From an uncultured bacterium (GTDB taxonomy: Bacteria > Verrucomicrobiota > Kiritimatiellia > RFP12 > UBA1067): DNA of 64,000 nt. Under the pieces are notes generated by a model. The model saw only the letters and a list, made by a program, of their open reading frames with translations, was not told where the DNA came from and searched no databases. Position 1 is the first letter of the stretch. Every line of letters starts with the position of its first letter. The stretch is from NCBI GenBank assembly GCA_902770045.1, contig CACXRO010000008.1:1412-65411 (forward strand), in the 5' to 3' direction. Of this stretch, positions 10,501 through 53,915 are shown piece by piece. Both the position numbers and the translations under genes were made by a program.

Positions 10501-11572
10501 CGCGCGCCGACGGCCGTCCGTTGACCAGCAGCGCGTCGAGCGCGTCGACGACGTCGATGGCGTTGGAGACGGTGGAGTCGGAGGCGATGTCGTCGTCGGC
10601 GTCGAGCGACGTCACCACTTCGTGGCGGCCGGGCTTCGCGAAGGCGTGGGAGAACTCGAACGTGCGGGCGAGGCCGGGGAGGATCTGTCCGACCGGCGCG
10701 CGCGCCGCCTCGGCGCCGTCAACGCGCATCACCACGTCGCCGGGCGAGAACGGCACCGAGCCGGCGTTGACGACGGTCACGGAGAACGCGGCGGGGCGGT
10801 CGGTCCCGATCACCCGGCGGCTCGGGCGGACGGCGGCGATGGCGGCGTTCCTGACGTCGCCGGGCCGCTCGAAGGTGCGCCACACGACCGGAGGCCGGCG
10901 CGGGAAGCGCGCGAAGATGCGCTCCACGCGCTTCCACTCCGCCTCGTCGCCGCAGCGCCAGCCGTAGGCCTGGCCGTCGCCGAGCACCACCACCTCCTTC
11001 GCGGGGTTCGCGCCGCCGACAAGCACCTCGCCGGCCGCGGCCAGCGAGCGCGGCGCGTCCATCGCGTCGTCACCGGGCTCGAGCGAGTCGAGCAACTCCA
11101 GCACCTCGCGCTTGGCGGAGATCGGCGACGGAGTGAGAATGACGGGCGTGCCCTCGCCGACGACAATGCCGAACGCCGTACCCTTCGGAGAGTCCTCCAC
11201 CAGCGAGCGCGCCTCCTCGATCGCACGGTCGAAGGCGGTGCGCCCGGACGGGTCGCTAAGCTTCATCGAGGCCGAGGCGTCGACCACCAGGACGACGTCC
11301 TTGTCCATCCCGGCGCCGCCGAAGAAGTGCAGCTCGGGGAGGAACGGACGCGCGAACGCGATTGCCGCAAGGACGAGGACTAGCGTGCGCAGGACGAGCA
11401 GCACCACGTCCTCAAGCACGAGCCGGCGGCGGCGGCGCCTGAGCGAGTCGGCGAGGAACATCCACGCGCCCCAGGGCACGCGGTCGGCGGTGCGCCGGCG
11501 CAGGATGTGCAGGATGACCGGTGCCGCGGCGGCGGCGAGGCCAAGGAGCATCCACGGGGCGAAGAACGACAT
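7553..11572 (-). CDS. BatA-N-domain / double VWA / GATase1-like giant membrane protein
   Basis: 1339 aa. The N-terminus FFAPWMLLGLAAAAAPVILHILRRR is the aerotolerance-regulator N-terminal motif. VWA MIDAS-like VVLVVDASASM and a second VAVFADRSLSM. Internal and C-terminal TM helices. The start (GTG 11575 or ATG 11572) overlaps the DUF58 stop. Confidence 0.75.
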   Translation of the reverse strand: MSFFAPWMLLGLAAAAAPVILHILRRRTADRVPWGAWMFLADSLRRRRRRLVLEDVVLLVLRTLVLVLAAIAFARPFLPELHFFGGAGMDKDVVLVVDASASMKLSDPSGRTAFDRAIEEARSLVEDSPKGTAFGIVVGEGTPVILTPSPISAKREVLELLDSLEPGDDAMDAPRSLAAAGEVLVGGANPAKEVVVLGDGQAYGWRCGDEAEWKRVERIFARFPRRPPVVWRTFERPGDVRNAAIAAVRPSRRVIGTDRPAAFSVTVVNAGSVPFSPGDVVMRVDGAEAARAPVGQILPGLARTFEFSHAFAKPGRHEVVTSLDADDDIASDSTVSNAIDVVDALDALLVNGRPSARGFDRPTAFLEAALRPELKGTNAVFLVKPRTVRAVELENPAVFSGVEAVALCDVPFLSPRAVQNLSKWVGGGGGLVVVPGERAQASFYTNELFAAAWTNWNHSLSDVAFEGAPVSGRAEFDESALRKVVDVAARFSDGAPAVLSAAFGKGRTVVTALPFDLKWTTFPARPLFVPFAHELVYSVAATNSVSAAVDTRWRSREGELKPLTQDELDTLAVSVDLGFARSLDDLMAAVVGRSFGVEIWRPFAVLALVLLLAEMLLCRRIDAERGGHVPSLPRAALRAVALLSLLWMLAHVSWTHDVTRSLHRRVAVFADRSLSMQRADAGAGEDGVQATRYAAATNIAAGLEERLLGRYDVEPFEFGDRTTDFSAALELALARIPSEELAGAVFVTDGRDTSDAGPSAAARRFARLGAKVSSVVVGNPTNRTDAAVEALSVAENVFLGDKVRPVARIRADGLKGRRVVVKLMEGEETLDRRELDVDADAWTKDVRFVHDPGGKGVRGYRVAIEPPEGDLEPRNDEWPFEVSVSDDRTNVLVADRRPRWEFRYLRNLFFARDKSVHLQYVLSEPDKLAGGAPANTAPADATRPFGEAEAGALPKTRDDWRKFDVIVLGDLGRDVLTDEVCEDIRYCVEERGALLVLTAGERHMPYDYAAGPLSGLLPLAMTNESGAVSARWVAAKTPFALTPSGRGHPATAVSSSPSENERVWGSLPPAHGRVEGVAAKPGAEVLLFAGDSTALAAPLLTVRGAGRGKVAFFSTDETWLLRYRHGDTYHHRFWGNVLRWGAGEKLRDGNQRARVGTDSLRCLPGETVKLMARFSDKDFMPVAGAKAKAEVKLPDGSLRTVDLVERPGANGIYEAEFDATEKEGGYEATVLAPEVEELLGDEWPRPLATRFAVDRGTAPVEYARPAADDAAPKAMARLTGGSVFAAGDDLSELDDAFGAGRSEIVERVDDAVWDHPAGLVLLALALIAVWTLRKRRGLA

Positions 11573-21653: not shown

Positions 21654-24080
21654 ATGGCTAACAGCGTGAAAATCGCCCTCGCGGGCAATCCCAACAGCGG
21701 CAAGACGACGCTCTTCAACGCGCTTACCGGGGCGGAGCAGTATGTCGGCAACTGGCCCGGCGTGACCGTCGAAAAGAAGGACGGCATCCTCGCCGGACAC
21801 AAGGAAGTGGTAATCCAGGACCTGCCCGGCATCTACTCGCTCTCCCCCTACTCGGCCGAGGAGAAGGTGTCGCGGCAGTTCCTCGTGGAAGAGGGCCCGG
21901 ACGCGATCCTCAACATCGTGGACGGCACCAACATCGAACGCAACCTGTACCTCTCGACGCAGCTCGCCGAGCTGGGACTCCCGATGGTGATGGCCGTCAA
22001 CATGATGGACGTAGTGAGGAAGAACGGCGACAAGATCGACTTCGAGAAGATCGCCAAGGCGCTGCGTTGCGAAGTCGTCGGCATCTCGGCGCTGAAGAAC
22101 GAGGGCGGGCAGAAGGCCGCCGAACAGGCGGTGGCGATGGCGAAGAAGGCCGTGGTCGACAAGGGCCCCGGCAAGCTCCCCGACGTTCCGCACGTGTTCA
22201 CGGGCTCGGTCGAGCACGCCATCGCCCACATCGAGGAGTCGATCCAGGGAAAGGTGCCGATCCGCTCGATTCGCTGGTACGCGATCAAGGTCTTCGAGCG
22301 CGACCGCGAAATCATCAGCCGCCTGGGGCTCGGCGTCGGCGAGATGAAGCATATCGAGGAGCACATCCGCGACTGCGAGAAGGAGCTCGGCGACGACGCG
22401 GAGTCGATCATCACCAACCAGCGCTACGACTTCATCAAGCGCCTCATGGACAATTCGCTCGCGCTGAACGAGAAGCGCAAGGGCAAGGCGACGCTCTCCG
22501 ACCGGATCGACAAGGTCGTCACCCACCGCATCTGGGCGATTCCGATCTTCATTCTCTCGCTCTGCGCCATGTGGTGGCTCGCCGTGGCCGAGAACGGCCC
22601 GGGGACGCTGCTCACCGACTGGGCGAACGACGGCTTCCTCGCGGACGGATGGCATCTCCCCTTCACCACCCACGAGTGCCGGGAGGACGGCAGGTACAAG
22701 GGCATGGAGTTCGAGGACGCGCAGGAGGAATTCGCCAAGGCCGAGGCAACGGTCGCAGCCTGGGAAGCGGGCGAGAAGAAGGCGTCCATCGAGGACGAGG
22801 AGACCGGCGAGGCATCCGATGAATGGGACGTCGACGAGGCGGCCTACAACGCCGCGAAAGACGCCGAGGAGCCGGATCCGTCGCAGTTCGGCGTGTGGGT
22901 GCCCGGCATCGGAGCGCTCATCACCGGCGCGCTGGAACGCTCCGGCGTCGGCGACACGGTGAAGAGCCTCGTCGTGGACGGCGCATGGGGCGGCGTCGCG
23001 ACGGTACTCGGGTTCGTGCCGGTCATCTTCATCGTGTTCCTCTTCCTCGCGTTCCTCGAGGACTGCGGCTACATGGCGCGGGTTGCGTTCATCATGGACC
23101 GCATCTTCCGCAGGTTCGGGCTCTCCGGCAAGTCGTTCATCCCGATCCTCATCGGCAAGGGCTGCGGCGTCCCCGCGGTCATGGCCACGCGCACGATCGA
23201 GAACGAGCGCGCGCGCAGGATGACGACCATCCTCGCCACGTTCATCCCCTGCGGCGCGAAGACGGTGATCATCGCCATGTTCGCGGCGTTGTTCTTCCGC
23301 GAGCAGTGGTATGTTGCCGCGCTCATGGACGTAGTCGGCATCGCGATCATCATCCTCGGCGGCGTCGCGCTGAAGAAGACGCGGCTGTTCAAGGACGAGG
23401 CCGCGTCGTTCGTGCTGGAGCTCCCGGCCTACCATCCGCCGACGGTCTCGGGCGTCTGGCACCACACCTGGAACCGGCTCAAGGGCTACATCCTCAAGGC
23501 AGGGCTCATCATCTTCCCCGCGTGCGTTTTCCTGTGGTTCGTGATGCACTTCGACTGGTCGCTCAACCTGCTGGCGGACGAGGAGATCGAAAAATCCATC
23601 CTCCACGACCTCGGCAGCTGGATAGCGTGGTTCTTCGAGCCGCTCGGCTTCGGCTCGTGGCAGGGCGCCGCGGCATCCGTCTCCGCGGAGATTGCCAAGG
23701 AGCAGGCGACCGCGACCCTGGGGCTCGTCGCGGCGAACATGGACGGCGCGACCACCGGCTCGCACATCCAGGCGCTGTTCGGCACGATGAGCGACTTCCC
23801 GAAGCTCGCGGCGCTCTCCTTCATGGTGTTCAACCTCTTCGTGCCGCCGTGCATGGTGGCGATCGCGGTGACGTTCCGCGAGATGGGCTCCCAGAAGTGG
23901 GGCTGGTTCGCGGTCGGTTTCCAGCTCTTCGTCGGGTATGCCCTGGCGCTCAGCGTCTACCGCATAGGCGTGCTCATCGCCGGCGGCGGCTTCGGAATCT
24001 GGACCGCACTCGCGATCGCCGTCGACCTCTTCTGCCTCTGGATGATCGTCCGCCCGGCGCGGAAGGAGGCGGCGAAATGA
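21654..24080 (+). CDS. feoB: ferrous iron transporter B
   Basis: G-domain GNPNSGKTTLFNALTG and DLPGIYSL followed by a polytopic membrane domain. SD AAGGAG lies 7 nt before the ATG at 21654; the track start at 21636 is an upstream TTG. Confidence 0.9.
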   Translation: MANSVKIALAGNPNSGKTTLFNALTGAEQYVGNWPGVTVEKKDGILAGHKEVVIQDLPGIYSLSPYSAEEKVSRQFLVEEGPDAILNIVDGTNIERNLYLSTQLAELGLPMVMAVNMMDVVRKNGDKIDFEKIAKALRCEVVGISALKNEGGQKAAEQAVAMAKKAVVDKGPGKLPDVPHVFTGSVEHAIAHIEESIQGKVPIRSIRWYAIKVFERDREIISRLGLGVGEMKHIEEHIRDCEKELGDDAESIITNQRYDFIKRLMDNSLALNEKRKGKATLSDRIDKVVTHRIWAIPIFILSLCAMWWLAVAENGPGTLLTDWANDGFLADGWHLPFTTHECREDGRYKGMEFEDAQEEFAKAEATVAAWEAGEKKASIEDEETGEASDEWDVDEAAYNAAKDAEEPDPSQFGVWVPGIGALITGALERSGVGDTVKSLVVDGAWGGVATVLGFVPVIFIVFLFLAFLEDCGYMARVAFIMDRIFRRFGLSGKSFIPILIGKGCGVPAVMATRTIENERARRMTTILATFIPCGAKTVIIAMFAALFFREQWYVAALMDVVGIAIIILGGVALKKTRLFKDEAASFVLELPAYHPPTVSGVWHHTWNRLKGYILKAGLIIFPACVFLWFVMHFDWSLNLLADEEIEKSILHDLGSWIAWFFEPLGFGSWQGAAASVSAEIAKEQATATLGLVAANMDGATTGSHIQALFGTMSDFPKLAALSFMVFNLFVPPCMVAIAVTFREMGSQKWGWFAVGFQLFVGYALALSVYRIGVLIAGGGFGIWTALAIAVDLFCLWMIVRPARKEAAK

Positions 24081-24265
24081 ACACCGCGTCCGCCATTGTC
24101 CTCGTCGCGGTCGTCGCGCTTGCCGCGCTCGCCGTCTGGCGCGTCATGAAGAAAGGTGCGCCGTGCGAGTGCGGCGGCACGCACAAGTCGTGCGGATGCG
24201 GCTGCGGCTGCTGCGGCGGCGCGGAGGGACGCGACCATGCCGCGCCCAAGGCGGTGCAGGACTGA
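24077..24265 (+). CDS. FeoB-associated Cys-rich membrane peptide
   Basis: MNTASAIVLVAVVALAALAVWRVMKKGAPCECGGTHKSCGCGCGCCGG..., i.e. one TM helix plus a Cys cluster. ATGA overlap with the feoB stop. It is hidden at the end of the spurious ORF 22823..24265. Confidence 0.65.
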   Translation: MNTASAIVLVAVVALAALAVWRVMKKGAPCECGGTHKSCGCGCGCCGGAEGRDHAAPKAVQD

Positions 24266-24315
24266 TTTACAGGCTCTTTGAAGTTTTTAGTGGAAAATGC
24301 TATCAGATCGTATTA

Positions 24316-24635
24316 GTTTAAAACTCCGATGGTTGGGACTCCCGCTACCGCTCCGTAGCTCCGCATCTCGCAACCCCGATTCAGGTCTACGGTGGTTTTT
24401 GTCAGCCGCAAAGAACGCAAAGGACGCAAAGGTTTTTTATCTGGGGGCAAGCCCCCAGACCCCCGAACAAGCCCCCACCCTGCGGCGAAGCCGCAGATAT
24501 AAAACATGGCAAGCACGGCCGTGGAGGACGAATGGCATGCGCGAAGCAAAGCACATTCTGCGGAGCGGGACAGCCGAGCGAAGCGAGACAGCCGAAGGCC
24601 GCGAGAGCCCCACGGATCGGAGTTTCATACACTAT
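24316..24635 (-). repeat. structured inverted-repeat element, copy 1 (MITE-like / candidate ncRNA)
   Basis: Termini: GTTTAAAACTCCGATGGTTGGGACTCCCGCTACCGCTCC ... GAGAGCCCCACGGATCGGAGTTTCATACACTA. Internal hairpins CTGGGGGC-AA-GCCCCCAG and CTGCGGC-GAA-GCCGCAG. Homologous in inverse orientation to 53483-53733. Confidence 0.75.
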
Positions 24636-24678
24636 GCTGTCGGCACTTCCACTAACATTCTTTGAAGAACCAATTTCC

Positions 24679-24687
24679 AACATACCA
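24679..24687 (-). promoter_or_regulatory. extended -10-like element (TGGTATGTT) reading into repeat copy 1
   Basis: The reverse complement of aacatacca, 43 nt from the TAGTGTATGAAACTCC end of the element. The geometry matches copy 2. Confidence 0.35.
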
Positions 24688-24716
24688 CAACAAACAAGGA
24701 AAGGCAAAACCAAACA

Positions 24717-25670
24717 ATGAAAACCAAGACCATCATGCTGGCGCTTGCGGCGGCCGTCTGCGGCGCCGCGTTCGCAGACGAGGAAACGACCGAGGAAAAG
24801 GCCGAAGGCTGGTCGTACACGCCCGGCGATGGCGTTTCGTTCAACGAGACTCCGATCGTCTCGGCCGAAGCATCGCTCTCGTTCGACTCGAAGTACCTCA
24901 GCTACGGCTTCGTTGACAACAAGGCGCCGATCCTGACGCCCGCCGGCGAGATCACCTTCTTCGACTGGCTGACGTTCGGAGTGAGCGCAATCTTCGACCT
25001 CACGAAGTACGGCAACCACGCCGGCTATACCAGCCGCCAGTTCAAGTACACCGAGCTGCACCCCACGGTCACCCTCGGCCACTCCTTCTCGCCGGAGGAC
25101 TTCGAGTGGCTTCCCACCACCGTCGAATTCGCCCTCGGCTACGACTACGAGTTCCACCCGAACTCCAAGAACAAGGGCGGCCTCAACGAATACGAAAACG
25201 GCTGGGACACCTCCATCGCCGAGGACACGCAGTTCATCACGCTGGAGCTGGGCCTGCCCGACCTCTGGCTGGAGCCCACGTTCCTCTACGAGCGCGACAT
25301 CATGCGCGACGACGGCACCTACCTCAACCTCGAGATCGGCCACACCTTCAACCTGCTGGGCGAGGAGGACGACACCCTGACGCTGCGTCCGTCGATCGCC
25401 CAGGGCTTCGGCAACGGGCAGCGCGTGAAGGCATACGCCACGAAGAAGGACGGCGAACCGCTAAACCACGCCGGCCTCATGGACACCATGATCAAGCTCG
25501 AGCTCGGCTGGAAGGTCTGCGACAACGTCTCGCTCAGCGGCTATGTGGGATACTCCGACTTCCTGTTCGACCGCAAGATCCGCGACGCCTCCCGCGACTA
25601 CGAGGCGACCGGCTCGTGGGACGACAGCTGGAACGTCGTCGCCGGACTGGCCCTGACGATCTCGCTCTGA
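24717..25670 (+). CDS. putative outer-membrane beta-barrel protein
   Basis: 317 aa. Signal peptide MKTKTIMLALAAAVCGAAFA, alternating amphipathic strands rich in Y/G/D. SD AAGGAAAGG. Confidence 0.45.
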   Translation: MKTKTIMLALAAAVCGAAFADEETTEEKAEGWSYTPGDGVSFNETPIVSAEASLSFDSKYLSYGFVDNKAPILTPAGEITFFDWLTFGVSAIFDLTKYGNHAGYTSRQFKYTELHPTVTLGHSFSPEDFEWLPTTVEFALGYDYEFHPNSKNKGGLNEYENGWDTSIAEDTQFITLELGLPDLWLEPTFLYERDIMRDDGTYLNLEIGHTFNLLGEEDDTLTLRPSIAQGFGNGQRVKAYATKKDGEPLNHAGLMDTMIKLELGWKVCDNVSLSGYVGYSDFLFDRKIRDASRDYEATGSWDDSWNVVAGLALTISL

Positions 25671-53332: not shown

Positions 53333-53346
53333 AAACGCCGGAAATC

Positions 53347-53414
53347 GAACCTTAATGGAACCTTAATTGAATCTAAAGACGAATTTAGATTCGCTTAAGG
53401 TTCCATTAAGGTTC
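53347..53414. promoter_or_regulatory. 68-nt nested palindrome: (GAACCTTAA)x2 ... GAATCTAAA-GACGAA-TTTAGATTC ... (TTAAGGTTC)x2
   Basis: The 20-bp outer arms are exact reverse complements, and so are the 9-bp inner arms. The palindrome lies exactly 14 nt from each of two divergent extended -10 elements. Confidence 0.7.
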
Positions 53415-53428
53415 AGCGTCGGGAAATC

Positions 53429-53437
53429 TGGTATACT
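53429..53437 (+). promoter_or_regulatory. extended -10 promoter (TGGTATACT) reading into repeat copy 2
   Basis: AAATC-TGGTATACT. No plus-strand ORF lies downstream; the element starts 45 nt later. Confidence 0.45.
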
Positions 53438-53482
53438 AATTGAATTTTGGCTTTTTTAAGTTTCGTGTGTGCTCTAGCAACG

Positions 53483-53733
53483 TAGTGTATGAAACTCCGA
53501 TCCGTGGGGCTCTCGCTACCGCTCCGCTGTATGGACTATGCATAGCATTTGACATACATCTTACACGGCCAATCTTGTTTTATATCTGATATCTGCGGCT
53601 TCGCCGCAGGGGTCTTGGGGGTCTGGGGGCGAGCCCCCAGATATAAAACCAGATAATGCTGTCTTCTGAATTGAGGTTGTTGAGTGCGAAGCAGTGGAGC
53701 GGTAGCGAGAACCCCAACCATCGGAGTTTCAAC
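53483..53733 (+). repeat. structured inverted-repeat element, copy 2 (MITE-like / candidate ncRNA)
   Basis: 35-nt terminal inverted repeats: GAAACTCCGATCCGTGGGGCTCTCGCTACCGCTCC at 53491-53525 and GGAGCGGTAGCGAGAACCCCAACCATCGGAGTTTC at 53696-53730. A 12-bp helix GTTTTATATCTG/CAGATATAAAAC encloses hairpins at 53593-53609 and 53623-53640. Confidence 0.75.
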
Positions 53734-53915
53734 TATCCCGAAACACACTCTCCACAATAACTTCGAAGAGCCTTGTTTTCTACGACAAGGCGCCAGCGCC
53801 TCAATCGACGGCGGGGATGGGCGAGCGACTGCGATGTCGTCCGCCTCGTGCGCCAGGGTCCCGAAGCGCTGGACGAGTACACCACGGGGACTGTCCCAAT
53901 TATTGTATTGCCGCG

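Follow-up and report, generated by a model that had tools for sequence, protein, structure and literature searches.

Is the structured, non-coding stretch that separates the feo operon from the gene for an outer-membrane-protein (OMP)-like product in an uncultured member of the Kiritimatiellae the gene for an RNA, or is it a mobile repeat? The stretch lies within the 64,000 nucleotides of DNA analysed here (the window), which belong to a metagenome-assembled genome (MAG) of 2.27 Mb in 87 contigs (64.7% GC, 85% complete; G000). An initial annotation had taken it for a 320-bp element resembling a miniature inverted-repeat transposable element (MITE), with its own inward-facing promoter, and had proposed it as a candidate gene for a non-coding RNA (ncRNA), with a second copy elsewhere in the window. 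The analysis presented here indicates that it is likely to be a composite, non-autonomous transposable element (a MITE) rather than an RNA gene: at window 24272-24671 (copy 1, 400 bp) ISL3-type ends surround a fold-back that comes from GxxExxY cassettes. In what follows, G numbers designate genomes (G019, or RUG10963, is the sister species of G000), L numbers loci in related genomes, and C numbers contigs or copies of G000.

A whole-genome search of G000 by BLAST and motif scan found at least 23 complete copies of the element and ∼6 that are truncated or lie at contig ends. The complete copies measure 218-347 bp between their ACTCC ends, and each has one A end (ACTCCGATGGTTGGGG..., with GATGGT) and one B end (ACTCCGATC[CT]GTGGGG..., with GATCYG). 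Their arms are 45-60 nt long and surround a constant core made up of a T-rich stretch, hairpin 1, ACCCCC, hairpin 2 and an A-rich stretch. The inner arm pair is asymmetric (A, ACTCCGATGGT...; B, ACTCCGATCYG...). Even the most similar paralogues share no more than 79-88% identity. Copy 2 of the window is indeed the same element, as had been proposed, in reverse orientation to copy 1, but the picture of two copies gives way to that of a family. Outside G000, 12 of 24 genomes in the genus have this family, and all 16 genomes from other families of the order lack it. G019 carries a similar load of full-length copies, and in an arm-pattern scan of public genomes every host that could be identified was a Kiritimatiellae-type MAG from gut or rumen. 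A long form, to which about half of the copies belong, both window copies included, has an additional inverted repeat beyond the ACTCCGAT ends (GGCTCTTCGAAGTTTTTAGTGGAAAACGCTATCAGATCGTGTTAGTTTGA on the A side; GGTTCTTCAAAGAATTTAGTGGAAGTGCCGACAGCGTAGTGTATGA, reading inward, on the B side). The other half, the short form, lacks these tips.

The outer 48-51 nt on each side of the long form are ISL3-type terminal inverted repeats (TIRs; GGCTCTTYGAAGTTTTTAGTGG). A published ISL3-family transposon has the inverted repeat GGGTCTTCGGA, tips of the form GG(C/G)TCTTCG and an 8-bp AT-rich target duplication, AAAATAAG (PMC9782665). Target duplications of 8 bp, mostly AT-rich, lie directly outside the GGYTCTTC tips at five long-form loci. 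They match at 8/8 positions at C39 (ATTACTTC), C68 (TAAACCGC) and C17 (GATTTTTA), and at 6/8 at L045 (ATTTCTTT / ATTTCAGT) and at copy 1 (Table 1), and the orthologous locus in RUG14537 (L082) has the same 8-mer pair as copy 1. Mismatched flank pairs, which served as the null, gave a mean of 2.1/8, with six or more matches in 2.5%. Other classes of duplication were rejected. A TA duplication of the IS630 or Correia type is ruled out by inconsistent dinucleotides beside ACTCC, and variable-length duplications of 9-14 bp were dismissed because no class other than the 8-bp one at long-form tips is found consistently at different loci. A 14-bp repeat at C44 and a 10-bp repeat at L077 are real; at C1, a 13-bp repeat consists of two terminator-like sequences, which the empty site has as well, and a 9-bp repeat at copy 1 is the near-palindromic tip of the TIR.

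Because the 8-bp duplications directly abut the GGYTCTTC tips, copy 1 spans window 24272-24671. The size of 320 bp proposed initially, with ends at the ACTCCGAT repeats, thus falls short: the outer ends run on for a further 51 nt on the A side, to GGCTCTTTGAAG... (24272), and 48 nt on the B side, to ...CTTTGAAGAACC (24671). The inner part, whose left arm AAACTCCGATGGTTGGGACTCCCGCTACCGCTCC begins at 24321 and whose right arm ...GAGAGCCCCACGGATCGGAGTTT finishes at 24625, comprises 301 bp, with the ACTCCGAT arms and two GC hairpins. Taken together, the outer tips (GGCTCTTTGAAG / GGTTCTTCAAAG) and the inner arms that follow them form an imperfect inverted repeat of ∼95 nt. Copy 1 has no coding capacity beyond chance frames in 65% GC sequence. 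In G000 no outer arms were found alone; they occur only attached to the inner element.

The closest match to these ends is a truncated ISL3 insertion sequence (IS) in G021 (L181:1275-2418), which retains zf-ISL3 zinc-finger and N-terminal DDE_Tnp_ISL3 fragments. Its ends share 68/95 and 62/80 identities with those of copy 1, spanning both outer and inner arms (∼80-96 nt), and ISL3 elements with similar tips are present in G175, G060 and G027. We propose that an ISL3 transposase supplied in trans would have recognised the outer ∼50-nt ends and inserted the element by an 8-bp staggered cut, as the ends and the duplication suggest.

Comparison between species shows that the loci differ by presence of the element. 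When the flanks of 15 G000 copies were joined and searched against G019, 9 loci were continuous without the element, the feo-OMP spacer of copy 1 among them. About 9 other loci are common to G000 and G019, with co-linear orthologous copies, and conversely G000 has empty sites for at least 3 copies found in relatives, one of them a long-form copy that differs by a clean indel (L045 versus C13). Short-form copies also differ in presence between G000 and G019. Copy 1 is found in strains from four independent metagenome studies, and in four DNA metagenomes there is no strain-level empty site, as all contigs from its unique flanks run into the arms; the insertion is therefore fixed within the species. 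No movement was observed between near-identical strains. Hence the MITE-like character noted initially is borne out by the number of copies, by the 8-bp duplications at long-form copies and by the absence of copy 1 from the sister-species site. For annotation, the stretch is a repeat and not an RNA gene, and the feo-OMP spacer differs from that of the sister species by an insertion. Many of the breaks between contigs in these rumen MAGs are likewise accounted for by the family: Logan contigs from the four DNA runs end within the arms, and several copies are located at the end of a contig.

Table 1. Features of copy 1 and position of copy 2 in window coordinates
Feature	Position	Strand	Description
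Left target duplication of copy 1	24264-24271		GATTTACA; 6/8 identical to 24672-24679; overlaps TGA stop (24263-24265) of the Cys-rich ORF
Outer terminal inverted repeat, A side	24272-24322	+	ISL3 type, GGCTCTTTGAAGTTTTTAGTGGAAAATGCTATCAGATCGTATTAGTTTAAA; homologous to L181 end
Inner A arm	24323-24368	+	ACTCCGATGGTTGGGACTCCCGCTACCGCTCCGTAGCTCCGCATC; common to 5' arm of GxxExxY cassettes
Optional heptad-type module	24386-24431	+	..TTTTTGTCAGCCGCAAAGAACGCAAAGGACGCAAAGG; missing in copy 2 and in about half of copies
AT-rich clamp	24432-24443 and 24494-24505		GTTTTTTATCTG / CAGATATAAAAC, around both hairpins
Hairpin 1	24441-24458	+	CTGGGGGC-AA-GCCCCCAG; stem conserved, loop varies between copies
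Hairpin 2	24480-24496	+	CTGCGGC-GAA-GCCGCAG; in cassettes directly 3' of GxxExxY stop codon
B-subterminal region and inner B arm	24497-24623	+	...TGCGAAGC...CTGCGGAGCGG[module]GCGAGAGCCCCACGGATCGGAGT
32-nt GC-rich module	24569-24600	+	GACAGCCGAGCGAAGCGAGACAGCCGAAGGCC; fixed site within B arm
Outer terminal inverted repeat, B side	24624-24671	-	ISL3 type, inward reading GGTTCTTCAAAGAATGTTAGTGGAAGTGCCGACAGCATAGTGTATGAA; homologous to other L181 end
Right target duplication of copy 1	24672-24679		AATTTCCA; 6/8 match to left 8-mer
Proposed extended -10, TGGTATGTT	24679-24687	-	Outside the element; overlaps right target duplication; not a family feature
Copy 2	53449-53772	-	Long form, opposite orientation to copy 1; inner part 53494-53727

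An ncRNA gene at this site, in which a TGGTATGTT promoter outside the B end would drive a structured RNA of ∼300-400 nt from B to A, with copy 2 as its paralogue, is very unlikely. The features on which it was based are real: the inverted termini, both hairpins, the AT-rich clamp and the minus-strand TGGTATGTT are all present at the places described, and the flagged stretch folds well as RNA (-124.9 kcal/mol, z = -3.9 versus shuffles). At both window copies an extended -10 of the TGGTAT type, 64-65 nt away from the B end, points inward and has no protein gene beyond it, and TGGTATAAT is the house extended -10 of G000, accounting for 298 of the 540 TATAAT occurrences in this 65% GC genome. However, the target duplications set the edges of the element, so the TGGTATGTT box, which overlaps the right duplication, stands outside it, and the -10-like box of copy 2, TGGTATACT at 53429-53437, likewise lies 12 nt beyond the element edge. 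In a scan for the motif TGnTAnnnT that took in 200 nt to either side of each of the 23 complete copies, no copy but the two of the window had an inward motif near the B end (at 64 and 65 nt). The other inward motifs were one at 179 nt and two weak ones within outer A arms, and the motifs elsewhere mostly point outward (B side, 15; A side, 9). TATGTT is a weak hexamer, and a scan of 24150-24800 found neither a sigma-70-type promoter nor an intrinsic terminator; the T runs of copy 1 come before its hairpins and not after them. This house -10 is found, for example, at window 53429-53437 and in the flanks of most copies; across the genome it often follows CGAACCACGAA-type repeats, and where two promoters diverge the pair makes a near-palindrome.

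Comparison of the copies and the available RNA data point the same way. Rfam returned nothing at gathering thresholds (best sub-threshold match, E = 3.7). When 20 distinct copies (mean column identity, 80%) were folded to a consensus with RNAalifold, 0/51 pairs showed compensatory change and the covariation term was -0.02 kcal/mol; the helices are therefore conserved as sequence, as expected for inverted-repeat DNA. Metatranscriptome contigs from two libraries do cover copy 1, at 23900-24351 (entering from feo), 24323-24507 and 24292-24451, the last of them a 160-nt contig without mismatch, but their depth of 2-5 equals that of the neighbouring genes, and a contig that passes from feo coding sequence into the A arm is as expected for read-through or DNA carry-over. 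An RNA gene would also have to be reconciled with a locus that is empty in the sister species. The initial annotation had itself named dozens of copies with target-site duplications as the mark of a plain MITE; a family of this kind is what was found, and it argues against an ncRNA gene.

Inverted repeats of ∼45 nt around a segment of ∼200 bp, immediately upstream of a surface-protein-like gene in a gut bacterium that has many copies with the same repeats, also bring to mind an inverton, in which a recombinase would flip the segment between the arms and so switch the downstream OMP-like gene. This is extremely improbable. Both hairpins could be located in 43 distinct copies from several species, and in all 43 the interior is oriented alike, hairpin 1 preceding hairpin 2; orthologous copies are co-linear between G000 and G019; four DNA metagenomes contain no locus-specific strand-switch joints; and a -10-like motif lies inside the element in only 1 of the 23 complete copies.

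The origin of the inner part of the element is indicated by loci at which the same arm pair encloses an ORF of ∼125 amino acids (L043/L128, L099, L131, L132, L140 and others). The ORFs in L043/L128 and L099 match PF13366 PDDEXK_3 (E = 1e-32) and TIGR04256 GxxExxY (E = 1e-34). The layout of these cassettes is constant, running from the A arm through a hairpin, a TGGTAYAAT promoter, the ORF, hairpin 2 and the B-subterminal region to the B arm, and the place of hairpin 1 is taken in these ORF-carrying relatives by the hairpin upstream of the cassette promoter. MITE copies align to the cassettes L131, L132, L140, L128 and L099 over the 5' 42-57 nt and over the 3' 115 nt, the latter alignment being contiguous from hairpin 2 to the B end. 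For example, positions 118-232 of copy C20a and 542-653 of L140 are 77% identical (E = 3e-20), and positions 150-246 of copy 1 are 73% identical to L132. This homology at both ends shows the inner 301 bp, a fold-back module, to be an ORF-less derivative of promoter-plus-GxxExxY (PD-(D/E)XK) cassettes of related Kiritimatiellae, and 160-bp mini versions in other species are the same kind of derivative. In another genome of the genus (G106), L132:1350-3028 contains a GxxExxY cassette that is followed by four tandem ORF-less copies of 208-222 bp in an array-like arrangement, ∼45-50 nt apart. A distant GxxExxY gene in G000 (C42:10770-11075, within 10671-11155; 33% identity to the L043 clade) is flanked by inverted CGCAAAG heptad repeats, the same repeat that forms the optional module of copy 1.

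These cassettes raise a different possibility, namely that the inner fold-back is itself the functional unit, a dispersed target or processing site of the GxxExxY protein that is spread or kept by that protein, with the ISL3 ends as a secondary hitch-hike in one subfamily. Arms face inward directly on either side of the gene in 8/18 close GxxExxY homologues (68-100% identity), always in the order A arm, ORF, B arm, while more distant homologues (<55%) have no such arms, so that the arm family tracks the clade of the protein. The short-form copies that vary between G000 and G019 lack ISL3 tips, and there is a precedent in the Ssn nuclease, whose gene is flanked by the dispersed NTS repeats that it cuts (PMC11893778). 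We consider this account doubtful, although clearly less remote than an RNA gene. Close-clade genes occur in 4/12 arm-positive and 0/12 arm-negative genomes of the genus, which is suggestive only, the association being weak (Fisher, p∼0.05-0.09). The short-form copies have no target duplication or defined junction, movement was not seen between near-identical strains, and the paralogues are old (79-88%). Arms also bracket transposase and toxin-antitoxin genes and are thus not specific to the nuclease. A literature search returned no functional study of GxxExxY proteins and no biochemical data for any of them. Furthermore, the close (L043-type) clade was not found in G000, an 85% complete MAG that has only two distant GxxExxY genes (32-33% identity), nor in 8 arm-positive genomes of the genus, and this also speaks against the derivation from cassettes that we prefer. 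In G019 a single close homologue (76%) is located between two MITE copies.

Unusually for such an element, the inner ACTCCGAT arms are not confined to the MITE and the nuclease cassettes: they are also found as an inverted pair around transposase ORFs of IS4-like (L073:5089-6811, L106), IS66 (L057:199-2375, L093) and ISL3 (L181:1275-2418) elements, where they sit just inside the terminal repeats of the IS itself, and around a vapBC pair in L075. Arm-less relatives exist for the IS4-like and ISL3 elements. The IS4-like DDE_Tnp_1 element (L073, L106) was considered as the autonomous parent of the family, since it lies between the same arms, and was rejected: its true ends, CTGGAGTTTACCCATTTTTTG, lie 62 and 108 nt beyond the arms and are common to arm-less homologues that are ∼170 bp shorter. 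We raise, tentatively and as a rather unlikely idea, that the inner ACTCCGAT...CGCTACCGCTCC...GCTTCGC arms are a portable hairpin module that encloses selfish ORFs (GxxExxY, vapBC and the transposases of three unrelated IS families). Such a module may be an RNA-processing or insulating stem, or a recognition site of the GxxExxY nuclease. If it were portable in this sense, the short-form copies would represent an undescribed, DDE-transposase-independent way of DNA spread, and if the arms were functionally linked to the uncharacterised GxxExxY nucleases, the cassettes with and without the gene and the three arm-bearing IS families would provide a well-populated test case.

Returning to the composite MITE, with ISL3-type ends around a cassette-derived fold-back, several observations weigh against it. 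The target duplication of copy 1 is imperfect, and the 8-mers that flank copy 2 (TGAATTTT / TTGTTTTC) match at only 4/8 positions. A model search gave no DDE_Tnp_ISL3 match in G000 or G019, although relatives do have matches. No intact ISL3 element with exactly these ends was found, the best being the truncated copy in G021, and other ISL3 elements of the genus (L189, L190) have only the first 25-30 nt in common with copy 1. Given that the paralogues are old, the difference between G000 and G019 could reflect precise loss in G019 and not recent insertion. The short form, ∼half of the copies, has no ISL3 tips and no clear target duplication; its borders are ill-defined, with GT-rich sequence along one flank and AC-rich sequence along the other. 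Mobilisation by ISL3 cannot account for such copies, in which the inner module must have spread by itself. The RNA data consist of strandless contigs, which could include an antisense transcript from the TGGTATGTT box. Finally, the orientation bias of the family, in which the B end faces a gene 5' end in 16/22 copies and the A-to-B direction is that of the genes in 11/14 tandem contexts and opposite in 3/14, is based on our own crude ORF calling, and 11 versus 3 corresponds to p∼0.06 only.

Copy 1 follows the prevailing arrangement, with its A end toward the 3' end of the feo operon and its B end toward the start of the downstream gene. The gene context is as first described: FeoA, FeoB and a 62-amino-acid Cys-rich ORF lie upstream, and downstream is a 317-amino-acid protein that has a signal peptide and no Pfam match. 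As there is no terminator between feo and the element, read-through is the simplest expectation, and the element is probably transcribed by passive read-through. Copy 1 would on this scheme be transcribed only in the A-to-B direction from the feo operon, and would then fold into a long imperfect hairpin. By analogy with Correia elements, the folded hairpin could be an RNase III substrate or an exonuclease-blocking structure that acts on the flanking mRNAs. The Cys-rich ORF (window 24077-24265, after feoB) is membrane-anchored, carries a Cys-rich tail (..CECGGTHKSCGCGCGCCGG..) and matches nothing in Pfam. G000 and G019 differ at its C-terminus, and the target duplication of copy 1 overlaps its stop codon.

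The extra sequence of ∼70 nt in copy 1 relative to copy 2, including an insertion in the right repeat, was correctly noted at the outset. Between the ACTCC ends copy 1 has 301 nt and copy 2 has 234 nt, a difference of 67 nt that is made up of a heptad-type module of ∼31-45 nt (∼24386-24431), 8 nt between the hairpins and the 32-nt module in the right arm. This GC-rich module (30-32 nt, GACAGCCGAGCGAAGCGAGACAGCCGAAGGCC) always sits at the same point of the arm, CTCGC^...^CGCTCC. It is also found in G000 at C15:27525, C20:26036 and C28:243 and in several G019 copies, and orthologous copies of the two species differ in having or lacking it (C13/L046, C23/L079, C49/L095 and C68/L054). Other modules occupy the same fixed arm site in other genomes. 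The heptamer GCGAAGC occurs three times on the A-to-B strand of copy 1 (24480-24496, 24540-24546 and 24578-24584) and is kept family-wide in hairpin 2 and the B arm; this sequence forms an unusually stable DNA mini-hairpin. Copy 2 adjoins a palindrome of ∼70 nt, AACCTTAATGGAACCTTAATTGAATCTAAAGACGAATTTAGATTCGCTTAAGGTTCCATTAAGGTT (window ∼53339-53415), which has at least 5 related copies in G019 and so belongs to a second dispersed repeat family. For the annotation of Kiritimatiellae genomes, it is useful that TGGTATAAT is a house extended -10 and that ISL3-type ends with 8-bp duplications mark one MITE subfamily.

Our literature search found no paper describing MITEs of Kiritimatiellae. The element can be compared with three kinds of known system. 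It resembles ISL3-derived MITEs in being an ORF-less element, here of 400 bp, with TIRs that start from GGCTCTTC as against GGGTCTTCGGA in the published ISL3 transposon (PMC9782665). Further likenesses are the 8-bp, mostly AT-rich duplications, the many dispersed intergenic copies and the existence of a related IS with the same ends. The usual inverted repeat of ISL3 elements is 15-39 nt according to ISfinder's description, whereas the shared ends here are far longer (∼95 nt). In addition, the interior comes from a nuclease-cassette fold-back and not from the IS, no intact partner transposase was found in G000, and half of the family is without ISL3 tips. Correia elements of Neisseria (CREE/NEMIS) are likewise small repeats with TIRs that are found between genes, close to promoters and gene ends, and that form long hairpins on co-transcription. 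RNase III cleaves these hairpins in Neisseria, with an effect on mRNA stability. However, Correia elements are 100-155 bp long with 26-bp TIRs and a TA duplication, compared with 220-400 bp and an 8-bp duplication in the long form of the element described here, and no link between Correia elements and ISL3 or a nuclease cassette is known.

The Ssn/NTS and REP/REPIN-RAYT systems differ from the inner arms and GxxExxY in several respects. The fold here is PD-(D/E)XK rather than GIY-YIG or HUH; the arms are 45-60 nt long, asymmetric and not themselves palindromes, unlike the 20-40-nt palindromes of those systems; and a close-clade GxxExxY gene was not found in G000, with no activity known for GxxExxY proteins. 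What they have in common with the inner arms and GxxExxY is a hairpin repeat that flanks a small nuclease or transposase gene and is also present as many ORF-less copies. The gene for the Ssn GIY-YIG nuclease is flanked by NTS/SRM repeats that are also dispersed, and this nuclease with its NTS repeats is the nearest published parallel to the combination of arms and GxxExxY (PMC11893778).

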